Assembly (NCBI GenBank): GCA_022826195.1
Contig: JAJDVI010000076.1
Span: forward strand, 85,971-149,970
Origin: Acidobacteriota bacterium
GTDB taxonomy: Bacteria > Acidobacteriota > Vicinamibacteria > Marinacidobacterales > Marinacidobacteraceae
Length of the DNA stretch: 64,000 bases
Reading direction: 5' to 3'
Shown: in pieces, positions 3,586 through 58,357 of the stretch
How positions within the stretch are numbered: position 1 is the stretch's first letter
How the letters are laid out: the number at the start of each line of letters is the position of its first letter
Made by a program: the position numbers and the translations under genes
The notes under the pieces: model-generated
What the model was told of the DNA's origin: nothing
Seen by the model: the letters and a program-made list of their open reading frames with translations, nothing else
The model's database searches: none

Positions 3586-3587
3586 CG

Positions 3588-10285: not shown

Positions 10286-10310
10286 GTTCCGGCGGCGCCG
10301 CACCGCCGTG

Positions 10311-10712: not shown

Positions 10713-10990
10713 CCCTCCTCCTGCTCCGGGGATTCCTCGTTCGGGATGCCCTTGTACTTGCCTTCGAACATCGCCTGGATCTCGTCGGCGAACATCGTGT
10801 CGAAATCGTCGGGTGCCGAGAACTGGCCGTCCAGACAACCGATCAGCCGCTTCCTGGGAGCCTCCTCCACCGCCGTCACCCGTACGAGCGGCTTGCCGGC
10901 GCGGGCGATGACGAACGGTTGTCCGTCCACGGCTTCCCGCACGAGACGGGAGAGATGGGTCTTGGCCTGGTGCATGTTCACGGTGCGCAT
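10709..10990 (-). CDS. Phd/YefM family antitoxin
   Basis: MRTVNMHQAKTHLSRLV..AVDGQPFVIARAGKPLVRV. Confidence 0.9.
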   Translation of the reverse strand: MRTVNMHQAKTHLSRLVREAVDGQPFVIARAGKPLVRVTAVEEAPRKRLIGCLDGQFSAPDDFDTMFADEIQAMFEGKYKGIPNEESPEQEEG

Positions 10991-11185
10991 GTCGGTTCTC
11001 CGAGATTAGTCCACTTTGGTTAGTTTAACCGTCGGCCAAAGCGACAAGGCGCCAATCGTCCAGCCTCCGTTTCCGTCCGGCCGCACCATCAGTCCGCGGG
11101 TCCGAGGTCGAGGCGGAGGTGTTGTACGCTCGCCGGCTGGCCGCGCGGCGGTCCACGGACCCGTGCGGCGACGGAGGCGAGACCC

Positions 11186-14293: not shown

Positions 14294-14351
14294 CCGGGTG
14301 GTTGTGAGTTAATTCCCACCCCAGACCTTCCCTTCCAGGAGATACCAGCCC

Positions 14352-16076
14352 ATGTCCCGTCTGCTCGACAAGAACCTGAGCCGCGCCGAATTCCTGAAGC
14401 TCTCGGGGGCCGCCGCCGCTTCCGGTCTGGCGACCGCCTGCGGTTCCGGCGGGGGCTCGGCAACCCCGCAGATGATCGTCCACAACGCCCGGGTGTACAC
14501 CGCCGAGTACAGCGAGGGCCGGGAGACGATGGACCAGGCCCAGGCGCTCGCCGTCAACCACGGCAAGTTCGTCGCGGTGGGTTCGAACGAGGACGTGATG
14601 AATCTCGCCGGACCGGGCACCGAGGTGGTGGACGCCGGCGGGATGACCGTGGTCCCCGGCTTCATCGATGCCCACTGCCATCCGGGCGGGATGCGGGACC
14701 TCTTCGAGGTGAACCTCGACGTCCGCACCATCGAGGACATCAAGATGGCGGTCCGGGCCGCCGCCGCCGACACCCAGGCCGGCTACTGGGTGGACGGCTT
14801 CAAGTACGACGACACCAAGGTCACCGACGAGAACGGCCAGTACCGCCGGATCACCCGGCACGATCTCGACGAGGCGACGACGGACGTTCCGGTGCGCGTC
14901 TCGCACCGGGGCGGACACATCTACTGGTACAACTCGAAGGCCTTCGAGATGGCCGGCATCACGAAGGACGTGGCCGATCCGCCGGGAGGCCGGTTCGAGA
15001 AGGACGCGAACGGTGAGCTGACCGGGCTGGTCGAGGAGAAGGCCGACGAGGTCTTCGACGGCGTCGGGCAGCGTCGGGTTTACGGCCGCGCCGAGTTCCA
15101 GCAGGGCGTGGCCCACATGTCGATGCTGATGACGGCCGCCGGAATCACCAGCGTGCACCAGACGGGCGGCGACTCCGACGGCCTCCTGGCCCTCGAGGAC
15201 GCCTACGCCGCCGGCGAGCTGCGCTACCGGATGTACTACTTCGCGTCCGCGGACTCCGACCTGCACCGCGGGATGAAGGAGGCGAAGATCCATCGCGGCT
15301 TCGGGAACGAGTGGCTCCGGATCGGGGCGATCAAGTACGGCGCCGACGGCTCCGCCTCGGGCCGCACCATGTACATGAGCACTCCCTACGAGGGCACCGA
15401 CGACCACGGCATCCTCACCATGACTCCCGAGCAGATCATGGAGGCCGTCGAGGACTCCCACGCGCACGACTTCCACATCGGGATCCACGCGAACGGCGAC
15501 CTGACCATCGGCTACGTCCTCGACGCCTACGAGAAGGTGCTTGCCGAAGCGCCGCGGGACGCGCGGCACCGCCTCGAGCACTGCTCGCTGGTGAACCCCG
15601 AGCTGCTCCAGCGGATCCACGACTCCGGTTCGATCCCCACCCCGTTCTGGACCTACGTCCACTACCACGGGAACAAGTGGGTGGAGTACGGCGAGGAGAA
15701 GATGAAGTGGATGTTCGCCCACAAGTCCTTCCTCGACTACGACATCAAGGTCGCCGGCGCCTCCGACTACGTGCCGGGGCCCTACGAGCCGATGATGGCG
15801 CTCCAGGCCATGGTGACCCGCAAGGACACCCAGGGCCGGGTGTGGGGCGACAACCAGAAGGTCACGGTGGACCAGGCGCTCCGGATCGGGACGATCAACG
15901 GCGCCTACGCGTCCTTCGAGGAGGACATCAAGGGCAGCATCAAGATCGGCAAGCTCGCCGACTTCGTGATGCTCGAGCAGGACCCCCACGACATCGCCGC
16001 GGACGACCCGGACCAGCTCAAGCACATCCCCATCCACCGCACCGTCGTCGGCGGCAAGACCATGTTCCAGGCCTAG
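14352..16076 (+). CDS. Amidohydrolase family 3 (YtcJ-like), Tat-like lipoprotein
   Basis: PGFIDAHCH, HANGD, RLEHC, ASDY, GKLADFVML; AGGAG SD; LATAC lipobox. Confidence 0.9.
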   Translation: MSRLLDKNLSRAEFLKLSGAAAASGLATACGSGGGSATPQMIVHNARVYTAEYSEGRETMDQAQALAVNHGKFVAVGSNEDVMNLAGPGTEVVDAGGMTVVPGFIDAHCHPGGMRDLFEVNLDVRTIEDIKMAVRAAAADTQAGYWVDGFKYDDTKVTDENGQYRRITRHDLDEATTDVPVRVSHRGGHIYWYNSKAFEMAGITKDVADPPGGRFEKDANGELTGLVEEKADEVFDGVGQRRVYGRAEFQQGVAHMSMLMTAAGITSVHQTGGDSDGLLALEDAYAAGELRYRMYYFASADSDLHRGMKEAKIHRGFGNEWLRIGAIKYGADGSASGRTMYMSTPYEGTDDHGILTMTPEQIMEAVEDSHAHDFHIGIHANGDLTIGYVLDAYEKVLAEAPRDARHRLEHCSLVNPELLQRIHDSGSIPTPFWTYVHYHGNKWVEYGEEKMKWMFAHKSFLDYDIKVAGASDYVPGPYEPMMALQAMVTRKDTQGRVWGDNQKVTVDQALRIGTINGAYASFEEDIKGSIKIGKLADFVMLEQDPHDIAADDPDQLKHIPIHRTVVGGKTMFQA

Positions 16077-16084: not shown

Positions 16085-16420
16085 GACCGCCGGTCGTCAG
16101 ACCGCCAAGCGCGGCGGCTTGGAACGCCGGTCTCCAGACCGGCACCGCGGTGCTCCGCACCGCGCACGTCCCAGCGTCACCCGGAAAAGGGCGCCCCGCC
16201 TACGTGCGCGTGGAGGTCAACGGCGCAGGCGACGCGTACGGCTTGGAACGCCGGTCTCCAGACCGGCACCGCGGTGCTCCGCACCGCGCACGTCGTTGCC
16301 TGCACGAGGAAAAGGTGACTTCCGCCTCGGCGCGGACCCCAACCGCGCAGGCGACGCGTGGGCTTGGAACGCCGGCTTCAGCCGGCACAGCCCGCCAAAG
16401 GCGGGCGGCCGGACGGACCC
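16085..16420 (+). repeat. Tandem cluster of REP-like elements (about 121-124 bp period)
   Basis: GGCTTGGAACGCCGGTCTCCAGACCGGCACCGCGGTGCTCCGCACCGCGCACG at 16116 and 16240; variant at 16361; degenerate copy at 16085. Confidence 0.85.
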
Positions 16421-37792: not shown

Positions 37793-37932
37793 GGCTTGGA
37801 ACGCCGGTCTCCAGACCGGCACCGCGGCGCTCCGCGCCGCGCACCGCGCGACTCAACGCCGCCTCGCGGCGCCGCCGGCTTGGAACGCCGGCTTCAGCCG
37901 GCACAGCCCGCCGCAGGCGGGCGGCGGGACGG
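37793..37932 (+). repeat. Pair of REP-like elements
   Basis: Type A 37793-37843 and type B (GGCTTGGAACGCCGGCTTCAGCCGGCACAGCCCGCC) 37877-37932, matching 16116 and 16361. Confidence 0.85.
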
Positions 37933-38012
37933 ACCTCATGCGCCCGGACGGTCCGGACGCTCGCGACTCCGCCCTGCTGAGCGTCTAACCTTCAGGCAAC
38001 AAAGACAAAGAA

Positions 38013-39506
38013 GTGTTCGACGGTCGGTCAGGCGGCGCCAAGGGGTCTCCGGCAATCCGGTCCCGGAATGCCGCTGAACCTCCCCTCGTCCTCGTCACCG
38101 GCGCGAGCGGTTACGTGGGTGGCCGGCTCGTGCCGGCCCTCGAGACGCGCGGCTACCGGGTCCGCTGTCTGGCCCGCCGCCCGGAGTTCCTTCTGAACCG
38201 CTTCACTCCGGCGACCGGGATCGTCGGCGGCGACGTCCTGGACCCCGACTCGTTGAGGGCTGCGCTGGACGGCGTCCACACCGCCTACTACCTCGTGCAC
38301 TCGATGGGAGCGTCCGGCGACTTCGAGGAGCAGGACCGGGCCGGCGCCGGGAACTTCGCCCGCGCCGCGCGGGAGCAGGGGGTCCGGCGGGTCATCTACC
38401 TCGGCGGCCTCGGCGGGCGCGAACTCTCGCCGCACCTGCAGAGCCGCCAGGAGGTCGGCGGCATCTTGGCGGCGGAGGGTCCCCAGGTGGTGGAGTTCCG
38501 GGCCTCCATCGTGATCGGCTCCGGCTCGCTGTCGTTCGAGATGATCCGGGCGCTCGTGAACAAGCTGCCGGTGATGGTCACCCCGGGCTGGGTGCGGACA
38601 CCCACCCAGCCGATCGCGATCGACGACGTGATCGCCTATCTCGTCGGCGGCCTGGAGTTCGAGGGCGAGGAAAGCGCCGTCTTCGAGATCGGCGGTCCCG
38701 ACCGGGTGAGCTACGGCGGGCTCATGCACGAGTACGCGCGGCAGATCGGAGTGCGCCGCCTTATGGTTCCGGTGCCGTTCCTGACGACCCGTCTCTCGAG
38801 CCTGTGGCTGGGCCTCGTGACCCCGCTCTACGCCCGGGTCGGCAAGAAGCTCATCGGGAGCCTGCGGAACGAAACCGTCGTCCACGGCAGCACGGCCCTG
38901 AGGACCTTCCCGGTCCGTCCCCTGACCGTCCGGGAGGCCATCGCGCGCGCCCTCCAGGCGGAAGACCGCGAGATGGCGGCCACGCGCTGGAGCGATGCGG
39001 TCTCTTCGGGGGGCAGGGCCTCCGCGTGGGGCAGCCGGCGTTTCGGCTCCCGGCTGGTGGACCGGCAGCAGGTCGAGGTGCCGGCCGGGCCCGAGCGGGC
39101 GTTCGCGCCGATCCAGCGGATCGGCGGCCGCCAGGGGTGGTACTTCGCGACCTGGCTCTGGTACCTGCGGGGTTTCCTTGATCTCCTGGTGGGCGGCGTC
39201 GGGATGCGGCGGGGCCGCCGGCATCCGGTGGACCTCAGGCCAGGGGACCCTCTCGACTTCTGGCGGGTGGAGGCGTGGGAGGAGAACCGGCTTCTCCGGC
39301 TGTGCGCCGAGATGAAGGTGCCGGGCCGCGCGTGGCTCCAGTTCGAGGTGGACCCGGCCGACGGCGGCAGCCGGATCACCCAGACGGCGGTCTTCGATCC
39401 GCTGGGGCTCGGTGGGCTCGTCTACTGGTACGGGCTCTACCCGGTCCACTGGCTGATCTTCCGGCGGATGCTGCGGGCGGTGGCGGCGCGCGCGTCCGCC
39501 ATGTAA
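38013..39506 (+). CDS. NAD(P)-binding epimerase/SDR with C-terminal DUF2867-like domain (YbjT-like)
   Basis: VTGASGYVGG, YYLVHSM, FRASIVIGSGSLSFEM; DFWRVE, AEMKVPGRAWL; start uncertain. Confidence 0.85.
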   Translation: MFDGRSGGAKGSPAIRSRNAAEPPLVLVTGASGYVGGRLVPALETRGYRVRCLARRPEFLLNRFTPATGIVGGDVLDPDSLRAALDGVHTAYYLVHSMGASGDFEEQDRAGAGNFARAAREQGVRRVIYLGGLGGRELSPHLQSRQEVGGILAAEGPQVVEFRASIVIGSGSLSFEMIRALVNKLPVMVTPGWVRTPTQPIAIDDVIAYLVGGLEFEGEESAVFEIGGPDRVSYGGLMHEYARQIGVRRLMVPVPFLTTRLSSLWLGLVTPLYARVGKKLIGSLRNETVVHGSTALRTFPVRPLTVREAIARALQAEDREMAATRWSDAVSSGGRASAWGSRRFGSRLVDRQQVEVPAGPERAFAPIQRIGGRQGWYFATWLWYLRGFLDLLVGGVGMRRGRRHPVDLRPGDPLDFWRVEAWEENRLLRLCAEMKVPGRAWLQFEVDPADGGSRITQTAVFDPLGLGGLVYWYGLYPVHWLIFRRMLRAVAARASAM

Positions 39507-41352: not shown

Positions 41353-41377
41353 CCCGACGACGGCTGGGCGGCGCCGC

Positions 41378-41402
41378 GATGCCGGCCGGAGGCCGGCGCT
41401 CC
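41378..41402 (-). repeat. Degenerate REP-like palindrome
   Basis: GATGCCGGCCGGAGGCCGGCGCTCC versus GATGCCGGTCTGGAGACCGGCGTTCC; between convergent genes. Confidence 0.55.
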
Positions 41403-41416
41403 GAGCCGGCGCTCCC

Positions 41417-42670
41417 CTACGCGACGATCAGGGGACGCAGCGCCTTGAGGCCCGCCAGCGCCCGCTCGACGTGCTCCGCGGTGTTGTAGAGGTGCGGTGA
41501 CAGCCGGAACCCGCCGGAGGTGGAACCGGCGATGCCGTGCTCGTCGTACATCCGGGAGAACACCTCGCGCCGGGACTCGGCCGGCACCTCGACGATGACG
41601 ACGCCCGCCGAGAGAGCGTCGTCCACCGGGGTCACCAGCGGGATGCCCGCTTCACGGAGGCCCTTCTTGAGGCGGCCCGCCAGGTCGTACATCCGCTTCT
41701 CGACCCGCTCGGGGCCGATCTCGCCGTGGAACTCGGCGGTGGTGCCCATGGCCGCGAGGCAGGCGTCGTCGCGCTGCCCCATGGACTCGAACTTCCGGGC
41801 GCCCCTCGGGTCCGGGTCGGCGTCGCCGCCCCAGCCCGGCGCCACCTCCGAGGGCCAGAGGCGCGGGATCAACTCCGACCGGACCACCAGCACTCCGCAC
41901 TCCTTGGGTCCGCAATACCACTTGTGGGAACTGCTCGTGAAGGTGTCGGCGCCGATCGCGGGAACGTCCACCGACAGCCCGCCGAAGCTCTGGGCGCCGT
42001 CCACGTGGACGTGGATGCCGCGTTCGTGCGCGGCGTCCGCGATCCGGCGCACCGGGAGGTGAATGCCGGAGACGTTCGAGACGTGGGTAATCGCGATCAG
42101 CTTCGTGTTCGCGCCCAGGGCTTCGATGAAGGGGGCGGCCAGATCGTCCGCTCCCGCCGGCGCCTTCGGAACCGACACCCGCCGGACCGTGAAGCCGTAG
42201 CGGGCCGCGCGGACATCCCACGCGACGTTGTTCGTCGGATGGTTCTGGTCCCAGAGGACGACCTCGTCGCCGTTCCCGAGCACCACGCCGGCGTTCACGA
42301 TGTTGTTCGCCTCGCTGGTGTTGCGGACGAGCGCCAGCTCGTCGCCCGTGACTCCGAGCTGCGCCGCGACCTTCTCCCGCGCCGACTCCCGCAGGTCCCC
42401 GAACTTCCCCCGGTTCTGGAACGAGCAGTCGTGGTCGATGTCCCGGGTCAGCTCGCTCACCCGGTCCGCCACCGACCGCGGCGAGGGACAGAGGTTCGCC
42501 GCGTTCATCGGCACCTTGTCCTCTTCGAAAGGGAACTCCCAGCGCACCAGCCGGAACAGCGCCTCGTCGTCGGCGGCGGCGGCCCGGAGGGCCGGGAAGA
42601 CGGCCGGAACGGCGGCCGTGGTGCGCAGGAACGAGCGCCGGGTAACGGCATTCGAGAGGGACTTCGTCAT
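41417..42670 (-). CDS. PLP-dependent class V aminotransferase (isopenicillin-N-epimerase-like) with Tat signal
   Basis: TRRSFLR; RNTSEAN, HVDGAQ, SSHKWYCGP. Confidence 0.85.
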   Translation of the reverse strand: MTKSLSNAVTRRSFLRTTAAVPAVFPALRAAAADDEALFRLVRWEFPFEEDKVPMNAANLCPSPRSVADRVSELTRDIDHDCSFQNRGKFGDLRESAREKVAAQLGVTGDELALVRNTSEANNIVNAGVVLGNGDEVVLWDQNHPTNNVAWDVRAARYGFTVRRVSVPKAPAGADDLAAPFIEALGANTKLIAITHVSNVSGIHLPVRRIADAAHERGIHVHVDGAQSFGGLSVDVPAIGADTFTSSSHKWYCGPKECGVLVVRSELIPRLWPSEVAPGWGGDADPDPRGARKFESMGQRDDACLAAMGTTAEFHGEIGPERVEKRMYDLAGRLKKGLREAGIPLVTPVDDALSAGVVIVEVPAESRREVFSRMYDEHGIAGSTSGGFRLSPHLYNTAEHVERALAGLKALRPLIVA

Positions 42671-45229: not shown

Positions 45230-45265
45230 TTGACGGGTCGCTCCTATTTCGATAATATTGGAAAT
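45230..45265 (+). promoter_or_regulatory. Leaderless sigma70 promoter with ArsR-type operator
   Basis: TTGACG-17-TAATAT-7-ATG; ATTTC-N10-GAAAT at 45246-45265. Confidence 0.75.
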
Positions 45266-45616
45266 ATGGAAACAAGAGCCACCGACTCCGCTGCCGGCGC
45301 GCTGGAGTCGCGGTGCGCGCTCTCCCGGGAGAGTCGTCTCGATGTCTTCCGCCTGTTGGCGCAGGGCGGTCCGGATGGACTCGCGGCGGGGAGCGCCGGG
45401 CACTGCAAGGCGCCGGCGCCGGCCTGCTCGTTCCACCTCAGGGAACTCGAGAAGGGCGGACTGGTGCGCTGCTGCCGCCATGGCAGATCCCAGGTCTACA
45501 CGGCCAACTTCCGGGCGATCCGGGCGCTGCTCGGGTACCTGACGGAACACTGCTGCTCCGAAGAAGCGTGCAGCCACGGGATTCCGGCGGCCGCGGAGGA
45601 CGGGCCCCTTGGATGA
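45266..45616 (+). CDS. ArsR/SmtB family regulator, copy 1
   Basis: SRLDVFRLL..GPDGL, SFHLREL..GL, YLTEHCC....C. Confidence 0.8.
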   Translation: METRATDSAAGALESRCALSRESRLDVFRLLAQGGPDGLAAGSAGHCKAPAPACSFHLRELEKGGLVRCCRHGRSQVYTANFRAIRALLGYLTEHCCSEEACSHGIPAAAEDGPLG

Positions 45617-45677: not shown

Positions 45678-45713
45678 TTGACTTCCGGTTCTGTTTTCGA
45701 TACTATTGGAAAT
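45678..45713 (+). promoter_or_regulatory. Leaderless sigma70 promoter with ArsR-type operator
   Basis: TTGACT-17-TACTAT-7-ATG; TTTTC-N10-GAAAT. Confidence 0.75.
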
Positions 45714-46112
45714 ATGGAAACGAGAGGCGCCCAGTCGACCGCCGAGGCGCTGGAGATGCTCTGCGCCCTCTCCCAGGAGAGCCGGCTCGACATCTTCCGG
45801 CTGCTGGTACAGAGCGGGCCGGATGGACTCGCCGCCGGAGCGATCGCCAGGCACTGTCAGTTGCCGGCGCCGACCTGCTCGTTCCATCTGAAGGAGCTCA
45901 AGAAGGGCGGGCTCCTCCGGTGCTGCCGCCATGGCCGATCCCAGATCTACACCGTGAACCTGCAGGCGATTCGGGATCTGCTCGACTATCTGACGGAACA
46001 CTGCTGCGCCGACCACGACTGCGACCACGAGACTCCGAACGGCGCCGCCGGTCGGGCTCCGGAGGGGCGCACGGAACACTTTGCGACGGGCTCCGCTTGG
46101 GGTGGAAAATGA
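45714..46112 (+). CDS. ArsR/SmtB family regulator, copy 2
   Basis: SRLDIFRLLVQSGPDGLAAGAIA, SFHLKEL, YLTEHCCADHDC. Confidence 0.9.
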   Translation: METRGAQSTAEALEMLCALSQESRLDIFRLLVQSGPDGLAAGAIARHCQLPAPTCSFHLKELKKGGLLRCCRHGRSQIYTVNLQAIRDLLDYLTEHCCADHDCDHETPNGAAGRAPEGRTEHFATGSAWGGK

Positions 46113-46225: not shown

Positions 46226-46261
46226 TTGCGTCGAACTCTATATTTCGATAATATTGGAAAT
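46226..46261 (+). promoter_or_regulatory. Third copy of leaderless promoter/operator
   Basis: TTGCGT-17-TAATAT-7-ATG; ATTTCGATAATATTGGAAAT identical to copy 1. Confidence 0.7.
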
Positions 46262-46561
46262 ATGGAAATCAAAACACGCCGAAGGAAGAGGCCGGGCGCG
46301 GAATCCGCCGATGCCTGCCTGCTGGACGTCCTGACCGCGCCGGTCCTGGCGGCGCTCACCCGCCTTCCCCGATCGGTGGTCGCGGAGGGCCTCGGCGCCG
46401 CGAAGATCGCCGAGTCCTGCCACCTCGGTAGCTCCCGCCGGAGGCCACCGCAGGCCCGGTTGCCGCGGGCGCTGCCGCGCGGTGGCCGCCGACGCTGCCG
46501 GGATGCAGATCACCATCCCAGGGTCATCTGCTACGGACCCCACGGATCCGGGGACCCCTAG
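46262..46561 (+). pseudogene. Highly degenerate ArsR-like copy 3
   Basis: ME start and EGLGAAKIAESCHL echo DGLAAGAIARHCQL; HTH second half and C-terminal CC lost. Confidence 0.45.
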
Positions 46562-49154: not shown

Positions 49155-50300
49155 TTGGTTTCCGACGGCTCCGGCCGAAAACCGGAGTCCGCGGACGTGG
49201 TGGTCGTCGGGGCCGGGCTCGCCGGGCTGCAGTGCGCGCGGCTGGTGGCCGAGGCGGGGCTCGGCGTGGTGCTGCTGGACCGGAAGGAGGACGTCGGAGA
49301 GCGGGTGCACACCACCGGGATCTTCGTCCGCAAGTCGCTCGAGGACTTCCCGCTGCCCCCGTCCTGCCTGGGTCCGCCGGTCCGCCGGGCCGTGCTCTAT
49401 TCGCCGGCGCGGCGCGCCCTGTCGCTCGCGAGCCGCCGCGACGAGTTCCGGGTGGGCCGGATGGCGCCGCTCTACCGCGAACTGCTCGGCCGTTGCCTCG
49501 AGTCGGGGGTGCGCTTCGTCTCCGGCGCCCGCTATTGCGGCGCCCGCCGGACCGCGCGGGGACTCGTGGCCGAGGTGGAACGCGAGGGCCGGTCCCTGAG
49601 CCTCGAGACCCGTCTCCTGGTGGGCGCCGACGGCGCGAACTCCCGGGTGGCCTGCGACCTGGGCCTCGACTCCAACACCGAGTGGATCGTGGGTCTGGAG
49701 TCGGTGCACAGCGGGGTGCCGCTCGCGGAGGGGGCGGCGCTTCACTGCTTTCTGGACCCCCGCATCGCGCCCGGATACCTGGCCTGGGTGGTTCAGGACG
49801 GCGAGGAGACCCACGTGGGAGTGGGCGGCTATCCGGACCGGTTCCACCCCCAGACCGCGCTCGCGGAGTTCACCGCCAGTCTCGACGGCCATTTCGCGCT
49901 CGCTGAGGGCCGCCTCCTCGAACAACGCGGCGGCCGGATTCCCGTGAACGGCGTGCTGCGGCGCATCGGCACGGACGCGGGACTGCTCGTCGGCGACGCC
50001 GCCGGCGCGGTCTCGCCGCTCACCGCGGGTGGCTTCGATGCCTGTCTGCGGCTCTCCCGGCAGGCTGCCGCGGTCATCGTGCGGCGCTTCGAGACCGGCG
50101 ACCCGGGGGTGCTGGCGACGTATTCCGGCGCGAACCTGCGGGCCCGTTTCTGGTCCCGCCGCTGGATGCGGGCGCTCCTCGCCGGGGTCCGGAGCCGGGC
50201 GGCGATGGAACTCGTCTGCGGGGCGCTCCGCTTTCCGCCGTTCCGCAACCTGGCGTGGCAGGTCTTCTTCCGGCGGCGGTCCTTTCCCGACGTGGACTGA
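49155..50300 (+). CDS. FAD-dependent oxidoreductase (geranylgeranyl reductase-like)
   Basis: VVVVGAGLAG, LVGADGANS, LVGDAAG..SPLTAGG. Confidence 0.8.
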   Translation: MVSDGSGRKPESADVVVVGAGLAGLQCARLVAEAGLGVVLLDRKEDVGERVHTTGIFVRKSLEDFPLPPSCLGPPVRRAVLYSPARRALSLASRRDEFRVGRMAPLYRELLGRCLESGVRFVSGARYCGARRTARGLVAEVEREGRSLSLETRLLVGADGANSRVACDLGLDSNTEWIVGLESVHSGVPLAEGAALHCFLDPRIAPGYLAWVVQDGEETHVGVGGYPDRFHPQTALAEFTASLDGHFALAEGRLLEQRGGRIPVNGVLRRIGTDAGLLVGDAAGAVSPLTAGGFDACLRLSRQAAAVIVRRFETGDPGVLATYSGANLRARFWSRRWMRALLAGVRSRAAMELVCGALRFPPFRNLAWQVFFRRRSFPDVD

Positions 50301-50314: not shown

Positions 50315-50367
50315 GGCTTGGAACGCCGGTCTCCAGACCGGCACCGCGGTGCTCCGCACCGCGCACG
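50315..50367 (+). repeat. REP-like element type A
   Basis: Identical to 16116-16168. Confidence 0.85.
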
Positions 50368-50442
50368 ACGCAACCTACCCATTTCCGGACGGCGCGCCGC
50401 CGGTCCCCACGCCTCGCCGCCGCGGGCCATAATCCGCGCGCC

Positions 50443-51231
50443 GTGAACACCACCTCCCCCTTCTCGCTCGCCGGGATGGACGTCGTCGTGATCGGCGGCG
50501 CCTCCGGGATCGGTGAAGCGAGCGCCGTGCTGGCAGCCGGCTCCGGCGCCCGGATTGTCGTCGCCGACCGGGACGAAGCCGCCGCGGCGCGATTGGTCAA
50601 CTCCATCGCCTTGGAGGGAGGGACCGCCGTCGCCCGTCCGGTGGACATCCGCTCCGGGGAATCGGTCGAGACCCTGTTCCTGGGCCTCGAGTCGGAGGGA
50701 TTCCAGCCGCGGGGACTCGTCTCCACTCCGGGCGTGAATGTCCGGAAGCGCCTCGCCGACACGAACGAGGAAGAGTTCGAGCGCGTCGTCTCGCTGAACC
50801 TGAAGGGGACTTTCCACGCCCTCCGCCACGGGGCGGCCAGTCTCGCGCGTTCCGGCGGCGGCAGCGTCGTGCTGCTTTCCTCGATCCGCTCCCAGGTGGT
50901 GGAGGCGGGGCAGGGGGTGTATGCGGCCACCAAGGCGGGCATCGTGCAGCTCGCCCGCACCGCGGCGGCTGAGTGGGCCGCTTCGGGGGTCCGGGTCAAC
51001 GCCCTCGCCCCGGGAGTGGTCGAGACCCCGCTGACCGCGCAGATCGAGAAGCGGCCCGACTGGAAGCAGGCGTACACCGACAAGACCCTGCTCGGGCGCT
51101 GGGCGACCGCGGAAGAGATGGCCGCGCCGACGGTGTTCCTCCTGTCGCCGGCGGCGAGCTACGTCACCGGTTCGGTGCTCTTCGCAGACGGCGGGTGGAC
51201 GGCGGTGGACGGACGGTTCGATCCGCTCTGA
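50443..51231 (+). CDS. Short-chain dehydrogenase/reductase
   Basis: IGGASGIG, YAATK, VRVNALAPG, YVTGSVLFADGG. Confidence 0.9.
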   Translation: MNTTSPFSLAGMDVVVIGGASGIGEASAVLAAGSGARIVVADRDEAAAARLVNSIALEGGTAVARPVDIRSGESVETLFLGLESEGFQPRGLVSTPGVNVRKRLADTNEEEFERVVSLNLKGTFHALRHGAASLARSGGGSVVLLSSIRSQVVEAGQGVYAATKAGIVQLARTAAAEWAASGVRVNALAPGVVETPLTAQIEKRPDWKQAYTDKTLLGRWATAEEMAAPTVFLLSPAASYVTGSVLFADGGWTAVDGRFDPL

Positions 51232-51428
51232 GGGTCGGCGTTCCCCGGCCGTTGCCGTCGCGAGGCTCGGTGGGCTGCACCGTGCGCGGCGCGGAGCGCC
51301 GCGGTGCCGGTCTACGGCGGTGGACGGACGGTTCGATCCGCTCTGAGGGTCGGCGTTCCCCGGCCGTTGCCGTCGCGAGGCTCGGTGGGCTTCACCGTGC
51401 GCGGCGCGGAGCGCCGCGGTGCCGGTCT
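51199..51428 (+). repeat. 115-bp direct tandem duplication (51199-51313 / 51314-51428)
   Basis: Two copies differing by one base (CTGCAC vs CTTCAC); include last 33 nt of SDR gene and left arm of a REP. Confidence 0.9.
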
Positions 51429-51532
51429 GGAGACCGGCGTTCCAAGCCGTGGGCGACATGTGGAGGGATGAGCGGTACGCGGTTCCGCTGCGCTTCCGCG
51501 GAGCGGGTGCCGGCCTGAAGACCGGCGTTCCC
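51396..51532 (-). repeat. REP-like elements (51396-51448 full; 51508-51532 variant)
   Basis: Reverse complement of type A element and GCCGGCCTGAAGACCGGCGTTCCC. Confidence 0.8.
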
Positions 51533-51533
51533 T

Positions 51534-54500
51534 TTACACGTAGAGCAGGACGCCCCTGGCGGGTTGGCCGGTGGCGCGCTCCACCGCCCGGGCGTAGAGA
51601 GCGACCTGCCGGCGGTAGCGGGCCTGGCTGGCCTGGAACCCGGGGTCCTCGGGTGGCCGGGAGTCCGTCTTGAAGTCGAGGACCGTCCACGCGCCGCTGG
51701 CGTCCGGTTGGAAAACCAGATCGGCGACTCCCTCCACCAGGGTCGGGCCGGATCCGCCGGGAACGGCGGCGTCTTCGGGGTCGGCGAAGGACTCGACCTC
51801 CAGCGTCGACGCGGTATCCGGCTCTGGGTGCAGTGCGGTTTCGCGGCCCGGAGGGCCGCGGTGCCGGTCTGGAGACCGGCGTTCCAAGCCGTCGGCCGGC
51901 TCCAGGTGGAGGAGGGGCAGCTCCCGGTAGCACACGCCCTGTTCTGCGGCTTTGCGCGCCTCGGTCAGGAGCGGGTGCCCGAGTGCGGCGGTCACCGCCT
52001 TCGCCGCGGCGGGGCCGAGCTCGTCCTCGAGCTCCAGTTCGCGGACGGCGCGGGCGGTTTCCGTTTCGACCTCCGCCTCTTCGGCGTCGAGAGGAATCTG
52101 CTCGAGAACCCGGTGGACCAGCTCCCCGAACGCCGCCCCGGCAGGGCGCTCCGCGTCCCGCGGCAGTCCTTCGGCATCCGGTCTCTCGACGTCCACCTCG
52201 AGGAGGTCCACCGGGTCGCCGGAGGATTCCAGCGCGGCGAACGTCGTGGCCGGCATTGCCCGGCGGGTCGGGACCCGCCCGGCATCGATGGCTCCCCGCC
52301 GCCGGGCGAGGAAGGCGGCTTCGGCCGCCTTCCCGTCGCCGAGCGCGCCGCCGGCTGCATCCGCCCTGAGCAGGTCCCATAGCGGTGCGGTTCCCCGCCG
52401 CCCCCCCGCTCCGCCCGACCGCCCCGACTCGCGGGTCCGGGGGGTGACGGCGCCGCGTCGCAGCAGCGGTCTGAGGCCCGCCGCAACCGGGGCGAGCAGG
52501 CTTTCCTCGGGGGAATCTCCCTCGGACACCGGCGCCGCCAGCAGATCCCGGGCCCGCGTCATCGCGACGTACAGGAGCCGGTCGAGCTCCGCGAGGTCCT
52601 CCGCCTCCTCGGCCGGGGTCCCCTCGATGAGGTCCCAGGGAACGATGCCGGCGCCCAGATCGCACGCGTGGAGCCGCTCCGCCGCGTTCACGATGCGGCC
52701 CGCCCGTCCGCGCCGGGGCGCGGCCCCGTCGCAGAGGACAACCACCGGGAACTCGAGTCCCTTGGCGGAATGGGTGGTCATGATCCGCACGCCGCGCACG
52801 TCCTCGTCGATGGCGTGCGCCGATCCCGCGTCCGGGTTTTCCGCTTCCGACGCCAGTTGCTCCACGAACCCGCGGAAGGAAAGGCCTCCGCGCGCCTCGA
52901 AGGCGCGCGCCGCCTCGCCGAGCCGGCGGAGGTTCGAGAGCACCTGGTCCGGGGAGTTCCAGAACGCGAATCCGGTCTCCGCGCGGTGCCTTCCGACAAG
53001 CTGCTGGAGCGTTACCGCGATCGGCTGGTGGGTACGGCGGCGGTGGAGGTCGTAGAGGAAGGCGAGCCCGTCCCGGATCGGCCGGTCCACCGCCCGGGCT
53101 CCGCTGGCGTCGTCGCCGTCCAGCTCGAGGGACCGGGCTCGGGCGGGCCTCAGCCGGATCTCCGGATGCCGTTCCCGGAAGAGGAAGAGGTCCTGGTCCG
53201 GGATCGCGAACAACGGACCTCGGAGGGTCGCGTAGACGCTCAGTTCGTCCTCGGGAAACTCGACGGCGGTGAGGGCCGCCCGCAGGAACGACAACTCCGC
53301 GCTGCTGATGTAGGTCTGCACCGCCGCCAGCGAGTGCGGGATGCCGAGGTCCTGAAGGGCATCGGCGTAGGGTTGGGGCACGAGCCGCCCGTAGTTCCGG
53401 AAACGCCGGAAGAGCAGGCAGATGTCGCTCGGTTCCACCCGCCGCGAGGGACGCCCGTCCGCCGCCGATACCTCGAAGCCGCTGTCGAGAAGCCCGCGGA
53501 CGAACTCCGCGACCGCCTGGGGCTCGTGCTCCTCGAAATGCCGCAGGTAGGGGGTGTGCGGCAGCGGGATGGCGGCGAGCGCTGGTCCCTCGGCCGGCTC
53601 CCGGAACGCGTGGAGCGGCACGTAGTCCACCTGCCGCGCGAGGCCTCCCAACCCCGGGCCCGCTTCGAACGCCGGTTCGAGGACCTGGTTCACGAAGTCG
53701 CAGATGGCGGGAACCGAACGGAAGTTCGTGGTCAGCCGAACCTCGGCGGCGCCGCCGGCGAGCAGGCGCTTCTTGACGCGCAGGTAGTGGCCCACGTCGG
53801 CGCGCCGGAATCGGTAGATGGACTGCTTGGGATCCCCGACCAGGCAGAGCCGCCCGGGGCTCGGGACGGCCTCGCCCCAGTCGCCGTCCGGCGGTTCCTC
53901 GGCGGTCAGCAGCAGGACGATCTCCGTCTGCATCGGGTCGGTGTCCTGGTATTCGTCCACCACGAGGTGGCGGAATCGCCCGGCGAGTTCCCGGCGGACC
54001 TCCGGGTGGTCCCGCAGCAGGCTGCGCGTCCGCAGCAGCAGGTCGTCGAAGTCGAGCCGGCCCGCTTTCGCCTTTGCGCTCTCGTAGTCGCCTACCAACC
54101 CGCGCAGGTCCTCCCGCAGGAGGGCGGCGAGGTCCGCATTGCTCTGCCGCTGGAACGCGGCGAGCCGGGTCCGGAAGGCGTCTCGCCACTTGCGGGTATG
54201 GGGGAAGCCGGACGGCGTGCGCCCGCCATAGGCCGGGACCCGGAGCTCCGCGAGCGCCTGCTCGAGCCAATCCAGATCTCGTCCGGAGCCGGCTTCCCGC
54301 GCCCGGACCTCCCGGGCGAGATCCGCGGCGGCGGCGAGGGATCGGATCAGCCAGTTGGGCCTCGCCCCCGGCCGGTCCTTAGGGAGGGACCGGTAGAGCT
54401 CCTCGAGCATGAAGAGCGAAGGGACCGGTTCACCCTCCTCGCCGCCGGGTTGTTCCACCAGTTCCACGATCGCGGTCTCCGCATCCCAGGCGCGCCGTTT

Positions 54501-55088
54501 CCAGGGTGCGTCGAGGGACCGGTAGTCGAGGAGCCGCAGGCCGGCCTGGTGGAGGACGTCGAGCGGGCTCACCATCGGGTTCCGGCTGCGGCGCAGCAGG
54601 CGGCCGATACCCGGTCCCGGGTCCTCGAGCTGCCGGTCGACGAAACGGCGGAAGACCCGGTCGAAGAAGGCCCGCTGCTCGGCGTCCGTCAGGATCCGGA
54701 AGTCGGGGTCCACCCCGGCCTCGATGGGGCGCTCTCGCAGGATGGTGGCGCAAAAGGCATGGATGGTCCCGATGGACGCCTCCTCGATCTGGGAGAGCGC
54801 CGCTTCGAGGCGCGGCCCCGCCGCCACCCCCTCCGGGCCGGCCGCCGCGCCGTCGATCCGGGACTCGAGGCCCTGGCGGATTCTGAGCCGCAGTTCACCG
54901 GCGGCTTTCTCCGTGAAGGTGATCGCCGCGATCTGTCCGATCCTGGCGGTGCCCGCGGCCACCATCTCGACCACCCGGTCCACAACCGACGTGGTCTTTC
55001 CGGTGCCGGCCGCCGCCTCCACGATCAGCGTGGTGTCGTGGTCCCGTCGGATGCGGTCCCGGGCCGCGGCGTCCGGAAGGGCGCTCAC
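51534..55088 (-). CDS. addA: AddA/RecB-like UvrD helicase-nuclease
   Basis: AAAGTGKTT, ITFTEKAA, DEYQDT, GDPKQSIYRFR, HSAKGLEF, YVAMTRA, EG.ADL...DFKT; GTGA overlap with addB. Confidence 0.9.
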   Translation of the reverse strand: MSALPDAAARDRIRRDHDTTLIVEAAAGTGKTTSVVDRVVEMVAAGTARIGQIAAITFTEKAAGELRLRIRQGLESRIDGAAAGPEGVAAGPRLEAALSQIEEASIGTIHAFCATILRERPIEAGVDPDFRILTDAEQRAFFDRVFRRFVDRQLEDPGPGIGRLLRRSRNPMVSPLDVLHQAGLRLLDYRSLDAPWKRRAWDAETAIVELVEQPGGEEGEPVPSLFMLEELYRSLPKDRPGARPNWLIRSLAAAADLAREVRAREAGSGRDLDWLEQALAELRVPAYGGRTPSGFPHTRKWRDAFRTRLAAFQRQSNADLAALLREDLRGLVGDYESAKAKAGRLDFDDLLLRTRSLLRDHPEVRRELAGRFRHLVVDEYQDTDPMQTEIVLLLTAEEPPDGDWGEAVPSPGRLCLVGDPKQSIYRFRRADVGHYLRVKKRLLAGGAAEVRLTTNFRSVPAICDFVNQVLEPAFEAGPGLGGLARQVDYVPLHAFREPAEGPALAAIPLPHTPYLRHFEEHEPQAVAEFVRGLLDSGFEVSAADGRPSRRVEPSDICLLFRRFRNYGRLVPQPYADALQDLGIPHSLAAVQTYISSAELSFLRAALTAVEFPEDELSVYATLRGPLFAIPDQDLFLFRERHPEIRLRPARARSLELDGDDASGARAVDRPIRDGLAFLYDLHRRRTHQPIAVTLQQLVGRHRAETGFAFWNSPDQVLSNLRRLGEAARAFEARGGLSFRGFVEQLASEAENPDAGSAHAIDEDVRGVRIMTTHSAKGLEFPVVVLCDGAAPRRGRAGRIVNAAERLHACDLGAGIVPWDLIEGTPAEEAEDLAELDRLLYVAMTRARDLLAAPVSEGDSPEESLLAPVAAGLRPLLRRGAVTPRTRESGRSGGAGGRRGTAPLWDLLRADAAGGALGDGKAAEAAFLARRRGAIDAGRVPTRRAMPATTFAALESSGDPVDLLEVDVERPDAEGLPRDAERPAGAAFGELVHRVLEQIPLDAEEAEVETETARAVRELELEDELGPAAAKAVTAALGHPLLTEARKAAEQGVCYRELPLLHLEPADGLERRSPDRHRGPPGRETALHPEPDTASTLEVESFADPEDAAVPGGSGPTLVEGVADLVFQPDASGAWTVLDFKTDSRPPEDPGFQASQARYRRQVALYARAVERATGQPARGVLLYV
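51856..51890 (-). repeat. REP-like element inside addA CDS, in frame
   Basis: 35 nt identical to start of the intergenic REP; encodes GLERRSPDRHRG. Confidence 0.85.
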
Positions 55089-58000
55089 GGGAGGCTCCGG
55101 ACTCCGACGACGTCGTCGAGGGCGGCGGCGAACCCGGCCCGGGCCTTGGTTCGCGCGTATCCCGCGGGCCGCGGTCCGCAGACCGGGAGGTAGTCGCAGT
55201 AGTCGCACACCCGGTAGGTGACTCCGGGGTTGGGCAGGGCCGGGAAACGCCCGTCCTGGACCGCCCGGTCGAGTCCGCCGACGAACGACTCGAAGACCGT
55301 CCGCGAGTGCTCGCTCGCGGCGTCCACCACGGTCTCCAGGTAGGCGCCGCGGATGGTCGCGTAGTAGAGCCTGCCCGTGGCCGCGGGCGATCCGGACAGC
55401 GCCTCGTAGGCCAGGGCGTAGAGGAGCGGCTGGAGAGCCCGGCCCCCGAACAGGATTCTCTGGGTGTCGGTGGTCTCGATCGAGGCGCGTCCGGTCTTGT
55501 AGTCCGTGATCTGCACGGTTCCGTCGGGGAGCCGCTCCACCACGTCGATGGACCCGTGGAGCCGGAGTCCGCCGGGAAGTACCGCCGCCTCGGTCCGGCT
55601 GGCCGGGTCGGCGGGTTGTCTCGCCCCCATGCCGAAGGTGAGCTCGTTCGCGAGCGGGACGCGGCCGGTTTCCGCGTACCGCTGCAGGAAACCGCGCAGG
55701 TCGCCGAGCAGCCCGTCCATCTGGTCTCGCCAGATGCGCTCGATCGCCGGCGCGACCCGCTCGCGTACTTCGGCTTCCACCCGCTGGAAGATCTCCGCCA
55801 GCAGCTCGAACGCCTCGTCGAGCCGTTCTTCCCGAAGCGGGGCCAGCTCGCGCTTCCGGAATTCCCGCCCCAGGTGGAAGAACACGTCGTGCAGGAGGGA
55901 CCCGCGGGTGAGCGGGTCCAGGTGGACCAGCGCCTCGGGACGTTCGACCGGCCGCAGCCGGACGAGGTTCTTGAGAAAGAACTGATACGGGCAGGCGGCG
56001 AACGCCTCGAGGCCGGTCGCCGAGAAGGAGCGGTTTCCGGGGCGGTGCCGTTCGAGCGCCTCCAGCGCGGCCGGGTTCGGGTTCAGGAAGCCGTCGGGAG
56101 ACTGCCACTTCCACTGCTGCCGCATGTACTCCTGGCGAAGCGCCCGCGCCAGAGCCGGATCGGACAGCAGATACGCTGCCGTCCCGGGGTCCCCCGCGCG
56201 GGCCCCCGGCCTTCCGAGCGCCGCCGCGACCTGGGCGAGATCGAACTCGCGCCGGTCGATCGCGAGCGACGCGTCGCGGGGCGCGCGAATCCCGCGAACC
56301 ACCTTGCTCTCCCGGCCCGCCTGGGCACGGATTTCGGCGAGCGTCGGAATCTTGCCGAGACCCGCCCGGAACGCTTCCGCCAGGTAGTACGACGGCACCT
56401 GGGGACGGCCCTCGACGAGATTCAGCGAGGAATAGCTGAGCGTGAGTCTGCGGGTGGCCGCGCCGATTCCGATCCGCAGCCGCAGGCGTTCGCGCTCGGC
56501 CAGATCGGAACGCACCGGCAGGTCGGAAGAGAGCGCCGCGCGCTCCCGGTCGAGGAGCATCGGATCTTCGCGGAGCACGCGGGGGAACGCCCGTTCGGAG
56601 AGTCCCGGGACCGCCACCACTTCGAAGGCGAGCCCGCGCGCGGCGTCGATGGGCCCCACCCAGACCCGGCCGTAGCGGCTGCCCCGGGAGCGGGTGACCA
56701 CCTCGGCGAGCCGCCCGGCGAGGCTCTCCCGCACTTCGTCGAGGGTGACTTCACTCACGTCCCGCATCGGGTCCGTCTCCGCCAGGCAGTCGATCACTCC
56801 CTGGGGATGGAGGAGCGCGGCGCGGGCCAGTCCCTCGAGGTGACGCATCCACTCGGAATAGCTCGCGTGCGGGGAAGGGAGGGCCGCCAGCCGGCGGAGG
56901 ATGGGCAGGGCGGTCTCGGTCAGTCGCCGGAGGTCGCGCTGGCGCGACCGGAGGTGCTCCCGCCTCGCCTCATCCTCCTCGGCCTCTTCATCCTGCCGCA
57001 GCCGGTCCGCGAAGCGGGCGAGGCGCCTCTCCCAGCGGTCGAGACCCCCGATGACCTCGGAGTCCAGGATGAGCCGCTCCCACCGGCGCGGCGCCACGAA
57101 ACCCGGGACCTCCAGCGCCGCTTCTCCCTCGGCGCCGGCCCCGGGCAGCCCCGCCCGGGCGGACGGAGTCTCGCCGAGCGAGAGGTATTCCGCGAACCGC
57201 GTCGCGGAGAGCCCTTCCCGGGCGCAGTCCAGGAGGACGAGAAAGGCGCGCCCGGCCGGGTGTGGCCGCCGGGCGCCGGCATCGAAGAAGGCCGGGATCC
57301 CGGCGCGCTCGAAGGCTTCCTGAAACGCCGAAGCCTGGGCGGCAGGCTCGGGGAGGAGGACGGCCATCCGGTCGAAGCGAACGCCTTCGCCCGCCTCGGC
57401 GAGAAACGCGCGGGCGTGCTCGATCGCCTCCGCGGCGGTTCCGGGCGCCGCGATCACGCTGAGCCCGTGGCGCTCCCGGTCGGGGTCGGGCCGCCGGGTG
57501 GCGAACAGATGGCGTTGTGCGGAAGCCACCGCGTCGTCGGGCGGCGCGTCCTCCGAGCCCCCTGCGGTCGCCGGGAGTGGCTCGGCTCCAAGCGCGAGCG
57601 CGGCCTGCTCGGTGGCGGTGTCCCCCTCCGGCAGCGTCAGGAATACCTCGGGGGCGGCTCCGCTCAGGGCGCCGGCGAAACGGCGCGCCGCCGCGCCCCA
57701 GAGCGCAACGTCCAGCAGGAGGAGGGGAAGCCCTGCCGGAGGAACGGCGCCGCGCTCGATCCGCCGGGTGGCGGCGGCGAACGTCTCCGCCCGATCGGCG
57801 AGGCCCACCTCGGTCAGTGTCTCGAGGTACGCGTGGTAGAGCGCCCCGAGGCAGTCGTCCCGGCCGGCTACCCGCTCGGCGCCGACGCCCGCCAGGCGCA
57901 GTTCGTCGAACGTGGCGGCGAGCCGGACGGCGAGCCCCGGACCCTCGGCGGCTTCGCGGAAGCGTCCGAGCGCTCCCTGCCGGCGCGCCCGGTGGATGAC

Positions 58001-58291
58001 CCGGACGACCGCCGCGAGCCTCGCCGCCGGGGTGAGCGCCCGGAGCCGGCGCGCCGCCAGTTCGGAGCGCGCGAGGTGCTGGGCGAGGACGGACAGGCCG
58101 AAGCGGAAGGCGCCGAGGAGCGCGCCGGAAGGGCCTCCCGTCTCCGCCACTTCGTGGACCATCCGGTCGGCGGCGTGGCGGCCGGCCGCGACGACGAGGA
58201 ACGGCTGCTTCGTGCCGAGCTTCTGGAGAAACCGGCGGGCCGCCGCGATGCGCACCGCCGCCCGCGGACTCTGGACGAATCGCCTGGGCAC
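55085..58291 (-). CDS. addB: AddB-like inactivated helicase + PD-(D/E)xK nuclease with Fe-S staple
   Basis: FSATGLEAFAACPYQFF, GSIDVVE, DYKTG, LQP.LY, CDYCDY..VC; GTG 58291 7 nt after TATAGT. Confidence 0.85.
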   Translation of the reverse strand: MPRRFVQSPRAAVRIAAARRFLQKLGTKQPFLVVAAGRHAADRMVHEVAETGGPSGALLGAFRFGLSVLAQHLARSELAARRLRALTPAARLAAVVRVIHRARRQGALGRFREAAEGPGLAVRLAATFDELRLAGVGAERVAGRDDCLGALYHAYLETLTEVGLADRAETFAAATRRIERGAVPPAGLPLLLLDVALWGAAARRFAGALSGAAPEVFLTLPEGDTATEQAALALGAEPLPATAGGSEDAPPDDAVASAQRHLFATRRPDPDRERHGLSVIAAPGTAAEAIEHARAFLAEAGEGVRFDRMAVLLPEPAAQASAFQEAFERAGIPAFFDAGARRPHPAGRAFLVLLDCAREGLSATRFAEYLSLGETPSARAGLPGAGAEGEAALEVPGFVAPRRWERLILDSEVIGGLDRWERRLARFADRLRQDEEAEEDEARREHLRSRQRDLRRLTETALPILRRLAALPSPHASYSEWMRHLEGLARAALLHPQGVIDCLAETDPMRDVSEVTLDEVRESLAGRLAEVVTRSRGSRYGRVWVGPIDAARGLAFEVVAVPGLSERAFPRVLREDPMLLDRERAALSSDLPVRSDLAERERLRLRIGIGAATRRLTLSYSSLNLVEGRPQVPSYYLAEAFRAGLGKIPTLAEIRAQAGRESKVVRGIRAPRDASLAIDRREFDLAQVAAALGRPGARAGDPGTAAYLLSDPALARALRQEYMRQQWKWQSPDGFLNPNPAALEALERHRPGNRSFSATGLEAFAACPYQFFLKNLVRLRPVERPEALVHLDPLTRGSLLHDVFFHLGREFRKRELAPLREERLDEAFELLAEIFQRVEAEVRERVAPAIERIWRDQMDGLLGDLRGFLQRYAETGRVPLANELTFGMGARQPADPASRTEAAVLPGGLRLHGSIDVVERLPDGTVQITDYKTGRASIETTDTQRILFGGRALQPLLYALAYEALSGSPAATGRLYYATIRGAYLETVVDAASEHSRTVFESFVGGLDRAVQDGRFPALPNPGVTYRVCDYCDYLPVCGPRPAGYARTKARAGFAAALDDVVGVRSLP

Positions 58292-58357
58292 CGTTCCCAC
58301 TATAGGACCGACACACGACAGATCCTGTCGGGGAAGCGGGCGCCGCCCCCGGAACGG

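Follow-up and report, generated by a model that had tools for sequence, protein, structure and literature searches.

A two-hairpin REP-type element lying in frame between nuclease motifs I and II of AddA in a sponge-associated member of the Acidobacteriota

Introduction

Repetitive extragenic palindromic (REP) sequences of the classical type are extragenic by definition. Here we describe a copy of a REP-type element that lies, in frame, inside the gene addA, in a stretch of 64,000 nucleotides (hereafter the window) of the Acidobacteriota contig JAJDVI010000076.1 (GenBank assembly GCA_022826195.1, positions 85,971 to 149,970 of the forward strand). The window has a GC content of about 72%, its DNA is present almost only in sponge metagenome runs, its nearest records are Vicinamibacteria and 'Ca. 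Marinacidobacterium' metagenome-assembled genomes (MAGs), and the host is a sponge-associated member of the Acidobacteriota. An initial annotation, made from the letters alone, proposed that a REP identical to intergenic copies had invaded an essential repair gene, that it was part of a 45–50-residue insert in the AddA nuclease domain, and that it was expressed as protein, after the manner of the Rickettsia palindromic elements (RPE). In what follows, WIN denotes the window allele (the query), L001–L027 the loci of relatives, and P0001 and the like orthologue proteins; residue numbers count from the Ser at 55085–55083, the true numbering being one higher.

Results

The product of 51534–55088 is AddA, a superfamily 1 (SF1) UvrD-like helicase followed by a PD-(D/E)XK nuclease with the motif series E...D...D-x-K (Table 1). 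Pfam assigns it UvrD-helicase, UvrD_C and PDDEXK_1 domains, a profile of 77 orthologues run against the PDB aligns over the whole length with Bacillus subtilis AddA (3U44_A, E = 6.6e-86), and its AlphaFold2 model, with a mean predicted local distance difference test score (pLDDT) of 84.7, has AddA chains (chain A) of AddAB as top Foldseek matches, with 4CEJ_A at E = 1e-42. Searched against the PDB as a single sequence, the C-terminal domain gave no more than a marginal match to AddA, and the profile search was used instead. At an identity of about 20%, the protein shares with B. subtilis AddA (3U44/4CEJ) the same full-length architecture of SF1 UvrD-type helicase and C-terminal PD-(D/E)XK nuclease, with the gene following addB. 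The adjoining addB, whose translation ends ...YRVCDYCDYLPVCG..., carries a candidate Fe–S cysteine cluster, in agreement with the assignment of its neighbour as AddA, and the addB–addA order is the same in relatives. Among the 77 orthologues T1140 is invariant, and D1137, K1139, Y1157, Q1160 and Y1164, the Tyr and Gln residues of which include the QxxxY motif, are at least 90% conserved. As to the gene having been called an essential repair gene, its place in repair stands, and nothing in these data points to essentiality.

Table 1. Coordinates of addB, addA, the nuclease motifs, the in-gene REP copy and further REP copies in the window
Feature	Position	Strand	Remarks
addB	55085..58300	-	PD-(D/E)XK nuclease domain (PDDEXK_1, E = 1.9e-35) and C-terminal C-x2-C-x5-C cysteine motif
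addA coding sequence	51534..55088	-	GTG start 55088-55086 overlaps addB stop; TAA stop 51534-51536; from open reading frame (ORF) and translation
Nuclease motif I, RELPL	51912..51926	-	residues 1054-1058; E1055 invariant in 77 orthologues
59-codon loop, motif I to II	51735..51911	-	residues 1059-1117; lineage-specific; predicted disordered
In-gene REP copy, 58 nt	51833..51890	-	GGCTTGGAACGCC / GCCGGTCT-CC-AGACCGGC / CGCGGCCC-TCC-GGGCCGCG / AAACCGCAC
REP hairpin 1	51863..51880	-	8-bp stem GCCGGTCT/AGACCGGC
REP hairpin 2	51842..51860	-	8-bp stem CGCGGCCC/GGGCCGCG; relative to intergenic copies, both arms changed with pairing kept
Nuclease motif II, EGVADL	51717..51734	-	residues 1118-1123; G1119, D1122, L1123 invariant
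Nuclease motif III, DFKT	51666..51677	-	residues 1137-1140; D, F, K at least 90% conserved; T invariant
REP copy	51475..51533	-	begins directly after addA stop; orientation as in-gene copy; position also filled in L024, L027, L022
Second REP-A in addA 3' flank	51391..51448	-	family D14; 88% identity to in-gene copy over 58 nt, 95% over 55-nt core
Intergenic REP-A	50315..50372	+	14 nt past stop of FAD-oxidoreductase gene 49155-50300
Intergenic pair, REP-A and REP-B	37793..37935	+	upstream of gene 37989-39506
Intergenic cluster of three REPs	16116..16419	+	REP-A at 16116 and 16240, REP-B at 16361; after amidohydrolase gene 14313-16076

The in-gene REP copy lies between RELPL and EGVADL, where its in-frame reading is GLERRSPDRHRGPPGRE; its placement between nuclease motifs I and II was annotated correctly, with both the frame and the catalytic residues kept. 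It encodes GLERRSPDRHRGPPGRETA (residues 1066–1084), the peptide GLERRSPDRHRG(PPGRE) being basic and Arg-rich, and the predicted peptide segments of the loop region in REP-bearing (REP+) alleles read ...LEPADGLE / RRSPDRHRGPPGRE / TALHPEPDTASTLE. The longest run matching intergenic copies comprises 36 nt (plus strand 51856–51891, CCGCGGTGCCGGTCTGGAGACCGGCGTTCCAAGCCG) and recurs at 16116, 16240, 37793, 50315 and 51448, which bears out the reported identity to the copies at 16116 and 50315, although the element, at about 58 nt, is longer than was noted. A 35-nt probe (51854–51888) finds six window copies at three mismatches or fewer, against 0 expected in 100 shuffles. Together with its flanks the copy folds as RNA at -42 kcal/mol (z = -3.3), and all three of its sense frames are stop-free. 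The 7-nt sequence GAGCCGG (minus-strand sense) flanks the copy on both sides, at 51893–51899 and 51816–51822, within a looser 13-nt similarity (CACCTGGAGCCGG and CACCCAGAGCCGG); the pair may be due to chance or may be the remnant of a target duplication (p ~0.05).

For comparison of the surrounding loop, the spacer between RExP and EGxxDL was taken from 120 orthologues. At 45% identity or less, that is, in other Acidobacteriota, this spacer counts 9–10 residues and forms a simple beta-turn, whereas every member of the query clade (at least 48% identity) has a loop of 26–81 residues, rich in Asp, Glu, Pro, Ala and Gly; a long and predicted disordered loop between motifs I and II is a feature of this acidobacterial clade, against 10 residues in other Acidobacteriota. 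Structure prediction, a check that had been proposed at the outset, agrees for the REP-bearing loop of the query: in the AlphaFold2 model, residues 1068–1110 have pLDDT values of 28–42 and are predicted to be disordered, between strands 1052–1062 and 1115–1125. Close relatives that have no REP (P0002, P0005, P0006, P0009, P0010 and L002, 85–92% identical overall) possess a 48-residue loop, LHFEPAA..GGSPSPGDGFDAASTLETE...., and these REP-free loops retain the ...GDGFETASALE... of more distant relatives, which is missing from REP+ alleles; the REP-free state is therefore ancestral. The REP peptide is found in the query and in P0001, P0003, P0004, P0007, P0008, P0012, P0016 and P0039, with REP+ loops of 53–81 residues. 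In the REP+ allele, about 44 nt of the ancestral loop (~14 codons) have given way to about 77 nt (~25 codons), a net gain of 33 nt and 11 residues, and the REP therefore accounts for 18–20 residues and not for the whole expansion of 45–50. Thus the initial annotation was right about the size of the insert (a 59-residue spacer against 10 residues in distant orthologues) of which the REP makes up only a part, and the objection that it foresaw, namely that REP-less orthologues might have the same loop, comes near to applying to the loop, which is nearly the same at 48 residues and 85–92% identity, and not to the REP peptide.

Nucleotide diversity among five REP+ alleles is 0.025–0.07 within the REP, against 0.19–0.24 in the adjoining loop and 0.07–0.23 in upstream coding sequence, and it is about 0.03 at EGVADL and DFKT, the in-gene REP being equally conserved. 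Between WIN and L024, 2 of 48 REP positions differ, at a synonymous divergence (dS) of 0.32–0.48 in the flanks and an upstream third-position difference of 0.30 (dS 0.48), for which a binomial estimate gives ~1e-5. The in-gene REP moreover keeps non-preferred A/T-ending codons (TCT, CCA, CCT, GAA). With a diversity as low as that of the catalytic motifs and with non-preferred codons kept, the constraint therefore bears on nucleotides and not on amino acids, and its simplest cause would be ectopic gene conversion, with the large REP family as donor. Both hairpins are perfect in WIN, L006, L024, L022 and L023, and stem-breaking changes are found in L007 and L001, which argues against strict structural selection.

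The integrity of the gene and of the assembly was assessed along several lines. In the five REP+ alleles, the ratio of nonsynonymous to synonymous divergence (dN/dS) is 0.14–0.69 over the 66 codons downstream of the loop and 0.32–0.50 over the 207 codons before it, the residues of motif II, motif III and QxxxY are intact in all REP+ alleles, and in every REP+ lineage the length shift relative to the empty site is divisible by three (+33, +15, +57 nt and so on). By its open frame, catalytic residues and dN/dS the REP+ addA gene looks functional. The same in-frame arrangement is present in at least eight other assemblies, among them L006 (a chromosome-level MAG, OZ220713.1), L007, L001, L024 and further database proteins, and both addA/REP junctions are mismatch-free in unitigs of four independent runs. 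Given the open frame, the purifying selection, the recurrence in assemblies and the matched junctions, misassembly and a pseudogene are both unlikely; the former, raised as a doubt with the initial annotation, was not borne out, the arrangement recurring in independent assemblies including the chromosome-level MAG. Translation of the in-gene REP is likewise suggested by frame conservation and purifying selection. In L027 (P0014), a 40-nt direct duplication (GGTCGTGGCCGAAGCGCTCGGCCACCCGCTGCTGGCCGAC) at 6130–6190, upstream of the nuclease motifs, frameshifts addA; truncation of P0014 as an effect of the REP was considered and rejected, the allele being REP-free, with the duplication upstream, in a long-read assembly.

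To follow the history of the site, a neighbour-joining tree was built from the AddA protein with the loop masked. REP+ and REP-free alleles are interleaved on it: the query is sister to REP-free P0002, and P0016, with a decayed REP, is sister to REP-free P0017. The sequence of the REP-free loops is the ancestral one, which excludes excision as their origin, and the derivation of REP-free from REP+ alleles in this manner was rejected on the grounds that the former keep the ancestral ...GDGFETASALE..., which is absent from the latter. To account for the interleaving, lineages must have recombined, or the site must have been hit more than once. Simple insertion with target duplication was also rejected, as REP+ alleles have lost some 44 nt of the ancestral loop. 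The alleles themselves are diverse: L001 misses 18 nt at the 5' junction of the in-gene REP, in L024 the 5' module is longer by an 18-nt insertion and the hairpins are those of REP-A, L022 has the same insertion with REP-B hairpins, and the in-gene REP of L025 has decayed. The in-gene REP-B of L023 is closest to L023's own REP downstream of addA, and in L003 a REP in the addA 3' flank has the hairpin-2 stem of the WIN in-gene copy; these likenesses are suggestive of exchange with neighbouring REPs, no more. Two further observations concern the site. L023 6205–6330 (canonical REP-B) and L022 6200–6360 hold REP-B plus a second, degenerate REP 5' module, two units in a loop of 75–81 residues. The long-read contig L026 has another addA-loop sequence at 5815–5925, with the REP-like hairpins GGCCTG-CTC-CAGGCC and GCGGCCC-GCA-GGGCCGC after GTTCCAGC; this contig is also frameshifted and of doubtful quality.

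Alignment of the copies gives an element of about 55–62 nt, composed of a 5' module GGCTTGGAACGCC, hairpin 1 (GCCGGTCT-CC-AGACCGGC), hairpin 2 and a short tail. The 8-bp stem of hairpin 2 varies on both arms among copies (CGCGGTGC/GCACCGCG, CGCGGCGC/GCGCCGCG and, in addA, CGCGGCCC/GGGCCGCG), and in the second REP-A of the addA 3' flank it differs from the in-gene copy by one compensated pair. A sister subfamily, REP-B, has the 5' module in common with REP-A and different stems. REP copies of 50–55 nt, with stems of 7–8 bp, fold at -28 to -38 kcal/mol, and the two-hairpin fold is adopted by 17 of the 19 folded copies from the window, relatives and unrelated metagenomes, the exceptions being the decayed L025_addA and L002_6511. 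The window holds 12 family members, all but one (11/12) outside ORFs with a coding-type GC content at third codon positions, and they are clustered at 16116–16419, 37793–37935 and 51391–51533. In four sponge metagenomes, unitig depth over the REP core is 2,800–13,600, against ~20 for unique flanks, and the family therefore appears to have hundreds of copies, their number per genome being inexact because related strains have the family in common. No Rfam family reached its gathering score at any point of the window. In JGI metagenome contigs the 35-mer is found at 0 loci and a degenerate core at 9, so that the family occurs elsewhere, in a sample too small for a genic/intergenic census.

General features of REPs are present in a GC-rich imperfect palindrome with a stable stem-loop, a high copy number, an extragenic bias, and positions in gene 3' flanks and clusters. 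Neither a GTAG nor a CGTC tag is seen, on direct reading, at the ends of the consensus GGCTTGGAACGCCGG...CGCGCACG or of its complement; such an end tag defines two REP superfamilies (PMC3733652) and not REPs in general. As for a miniature inverted-repeat transposable element, the ends GGCTTGG... and ...GCGCAC/GAAAC are not mutual inverted repeats, and the sole flanking duplication that could mark a target site is the doubtful 7-nt GAGCCGG. We appear to be dealing with a two-hairpin REP family of marine Acidobacteriota that is apparently undescribed.

Several side observations were made on this family. REPs start 0–40 nt past the stop codons of several genes (51475–51533, 41370–41420, 50315–50372 and 16116–16173 in the window; L024 4026, L027 6571 and L022 6623) with no T-run following, which sets them apart from classical intrinsic terminators; they may plausibly act at the 3' ends of mRNAs. 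At 51191–51420 a 115-nt unit occurs twice, head to tail and 99% alike, each consisting of the last ~40 nt of a short-chain dehydrogenase gene (50443–51231, plus strand), a spacer, and a REP broken off within hairpin 1 (GCCGGTCT|); this may be either a REP-mediated duplication or an assembly artefact. In L004, a 'Ca. Marinacidobacterium' MAG, positions 6898–7536, 3' of addA, comprise seven 102-nt head-to-tail units with one REP each (GCTTGGAGCGCCGGTCTCCGACCGGCATCGCGCGGGAGCGCGAAACC).

Apart from the REPs, a 28-nt AT-rich box (TATTTCGATAATATTGGAAATATGGAAA), unusual in DNA of 72% GC, is found at 45245–45272, 45693–45720 and 46241–46268. It overlaps the ATG of two paralogous Cys-rich ArsR-like helix-turn-helix (HTH) genes (45266–45616 and 45714–46112; Pfam HTH_20), the third box lying at 46241, and looks like a candidate operator or promoter.

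Discussion

Taken as a whole, these data are best explained, with a probability that we put at roughly 0.8, by a REP copy having joined addA within a pre-existing disordered loop, as a tolerated passenger that is retained by conversion. A copy of the high-copy two-hairpin element would have entered addA, either by insertion or through copying of the REPs immediately 3' of it, at a loop whose length, acidity and disorder presumably predate the event in this acidobacterial clade and which would interrupt the beta-hairpin on which nuclease motifs I (E1055) and II (D1122) lie. Some 14 codons would have been swapped for about 25 (net +33 nt) with the frame kept, and the REP would be read through as the basic peptide GLERRSPDRHRGPPGRETA. 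Since the loop is a permissive surface excursion, REP+ AddA most likely retains activity and the insert is most likely tolerated. The REP+ allele would then be old, and its occurrence beside REP-free alleles in close lineages would reflect shuffling by recombination, while the REP-like sequence and hairpins of the in-gene copy would be upheld by continuing gene conversion with other REPs, above all those of the addA 3' flank.

Five points weigh against this explanation. The net gain of 33 nt needs about 44 nt of the ancestral loop to have been deleted or replaced, and there is no clean target duplication, only the 7-nt GAGCCGG (p ~0.05). The nucleotide conservation could stem from selection on the element and not from passive conversion. 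The basic, Arg-rich peptide adjoins the AddA active site. Short-read unitigs (k = 31) stop within the 35-nt core, and the reads used do not span the element in the WIN strain. Finally, expression as protein, as first annotated, is deduced from the kept frame and purifying selection; addA-like contigs are present in one metatranscriptome run, and the one contig over the loop, which is the sole transcript-like contig, is the REP-free allele of a relative (129 nt skipped, with 96 other letters instead).

From the second of these points follows an alternative that we consider unlikely, while giving it some weight: the in-gene REP would owe its persistence to selection at the nucleic-acid level, its hairpins serving as a regulatory or structural element (for example as a barrier to 3'–5' mRNA decay protecting addB and the helicase part, as a pause before the nuclease core folds, or as a binding or recombination site), and the REP+/REP-free polymorphism would be selectively maintained. 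A REP diversity (0.025–0.07) that equals that of the catalytic motifs, synonymous sites and non-preferred codons included, next to 0.19–0.24 in the adjoining loop, is what such selection would produce, and the perfect hairpins of WIN, L006, L024, L022 and L023, the RNA fold at -42 kcal/mol (z = -3.3), the REPs directly after the stop codons of several genes, suggesting a role at mRNA 3' ends, and the coexistence of REP+ and REP-free alleles across the tree all point the same way. However, stems are broken in L007 and L001, the L025 copy has decayed, many close relatives are without the REP, and the conservation is accounted for, with no function of the element, once hundreds of copies serve as donors in gene conversion. 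A stronger form, which we hold to be rather improbable, sees the addA loop as a dedicated landing pad, at which REP units arrive again and again, subfamilies A and B replace each other and the units are homogenised, with selection keeping the in-gene REP as a nucleic-acid element within an ORF. If this were true, a long-lived REP+/REP-free polymorphism would tune addAB expression or AddA nuclease behaviour, and an Arg-rich basic peptide would adjoin the active-site hairpin, which the 3' strand traverses.

That the insertion inactivated the nuclease, the ORF having stayed open by chance in GC-rich DNA, is very improbable in our view. All three sense frames of the REP are stop-free, which makes an open frame weak evidence, and the orthologues P0014, P0028, P0030, P0031, P0034, P0035 and P0037 are truncated or frameshifted near the 3' end; yet the downstream dN/dS is 0.14–0.69, no REP+ allele has lost the residues of motif II, motif III or QxxxY, all REP+ lineages differ in length from the empty site by whole codons, and the frameshift of L027 sits in a REP-free allele, at an upstream 40-nt duplication. 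Hardly any credence attaches to an assembly artefact, in which reads of other REP copies had collapsed into addA and the true gene was REP-free or had another junction. The 35-nt core is indeed common to hundreds of copies, and k = 31 unitigs stop in it, but unique addA sequence runs into the REP mismatch-free from both sides in four independent runs, eight other assemblies or more, the chromosome-level OZ220713.1 (L006) among them, have the identical in-frame arrangement, and allele-specific changes such as the 18-nt deletion of L001 and the 18-nt insertion of L024 are incompatible with a generic collapse.

How far the case resembles known systems can be stated as follows. RPE measure ~105–146 nt and are Rickettsia-specific (Ogata et al. 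2000, as cited in the part of PMC3184786 drawn on here). Like them, the present element is a palindromic many-copy repeat, one copy of which lies in frame in a conserved protein and is presumably read as an extra peptide, in a surface or loop region that spares the fold and the catalytic residues. Unlike them, it counts ~55–62 nt, is unrelated in sequence, and resides in a free-living-type high-GC sponge symbiont, with one genic copy among 12 in the window and a host loop that had expanded before the repeat arrived. Judged by these differences it is not an RPE family member, and the resemblance is one of analogy only. With the REP and REPIN elements of Enterobacteria and Pseudomonas it shares short GC-rich imperfect palindromes in hundreds of mainly extragenic copies, often just after stops and in clusters, with stems that vary by compensatory changes; it differs in its unit of two hairpins with the conserved 5' module GGCTTGGAACGCC and in being without a GTAG or CGTC end tag. 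Small repeats fused in frame, internally or at gene ends, are described in the same part of PMC3184786 for several elements, among them BOX, RUP and SPRITE of Streptococcus pneumoniae and enterobacterial elements of the ERIC, RU and YPAL type, which are other element families in other hosts, and none of the fusions treated there is reported in an AddA/RecB catalytic domain. The phenomenon outside Rickettsia is therefore already known, and of the RPE-like case first proposed the likeness stands and the novelty in kind does not. Within the local DNA (the window and the relatives' loci) addA is the one gene found with a REP copy. A 106-residue concatenation of six REP frames matched three short hypothetical ORFs only, and a 36-residue loop query had no match at E <= 0.001 among 1.84 billion representatives, both searches being without power for a match of 18 residues.

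For AddAB function, current knowledge is unchanged by the finding, and in practice short-read assemblies break at copies of the REP family, which also gives rise to spurious ORF calls. What the locus appears to offer is a real, though not unprecedented, case of 'junk' repeat DNA within a working protein, its translation being judged from the conserved frame: a clean, datable example, from outside Rickettsia, of a non-coding repeat becoming protein sequence, with the one site filled, empty, swapped or decayed in the alleles of related uncultured sponge symbionts. It indicates that insertions of this kind settle in protein regions in which disorder was tolerated beforehand, and the allele series permits tests of whether protein-level, RNA-level or conversion-driven constraint acts on intragenic REPs.

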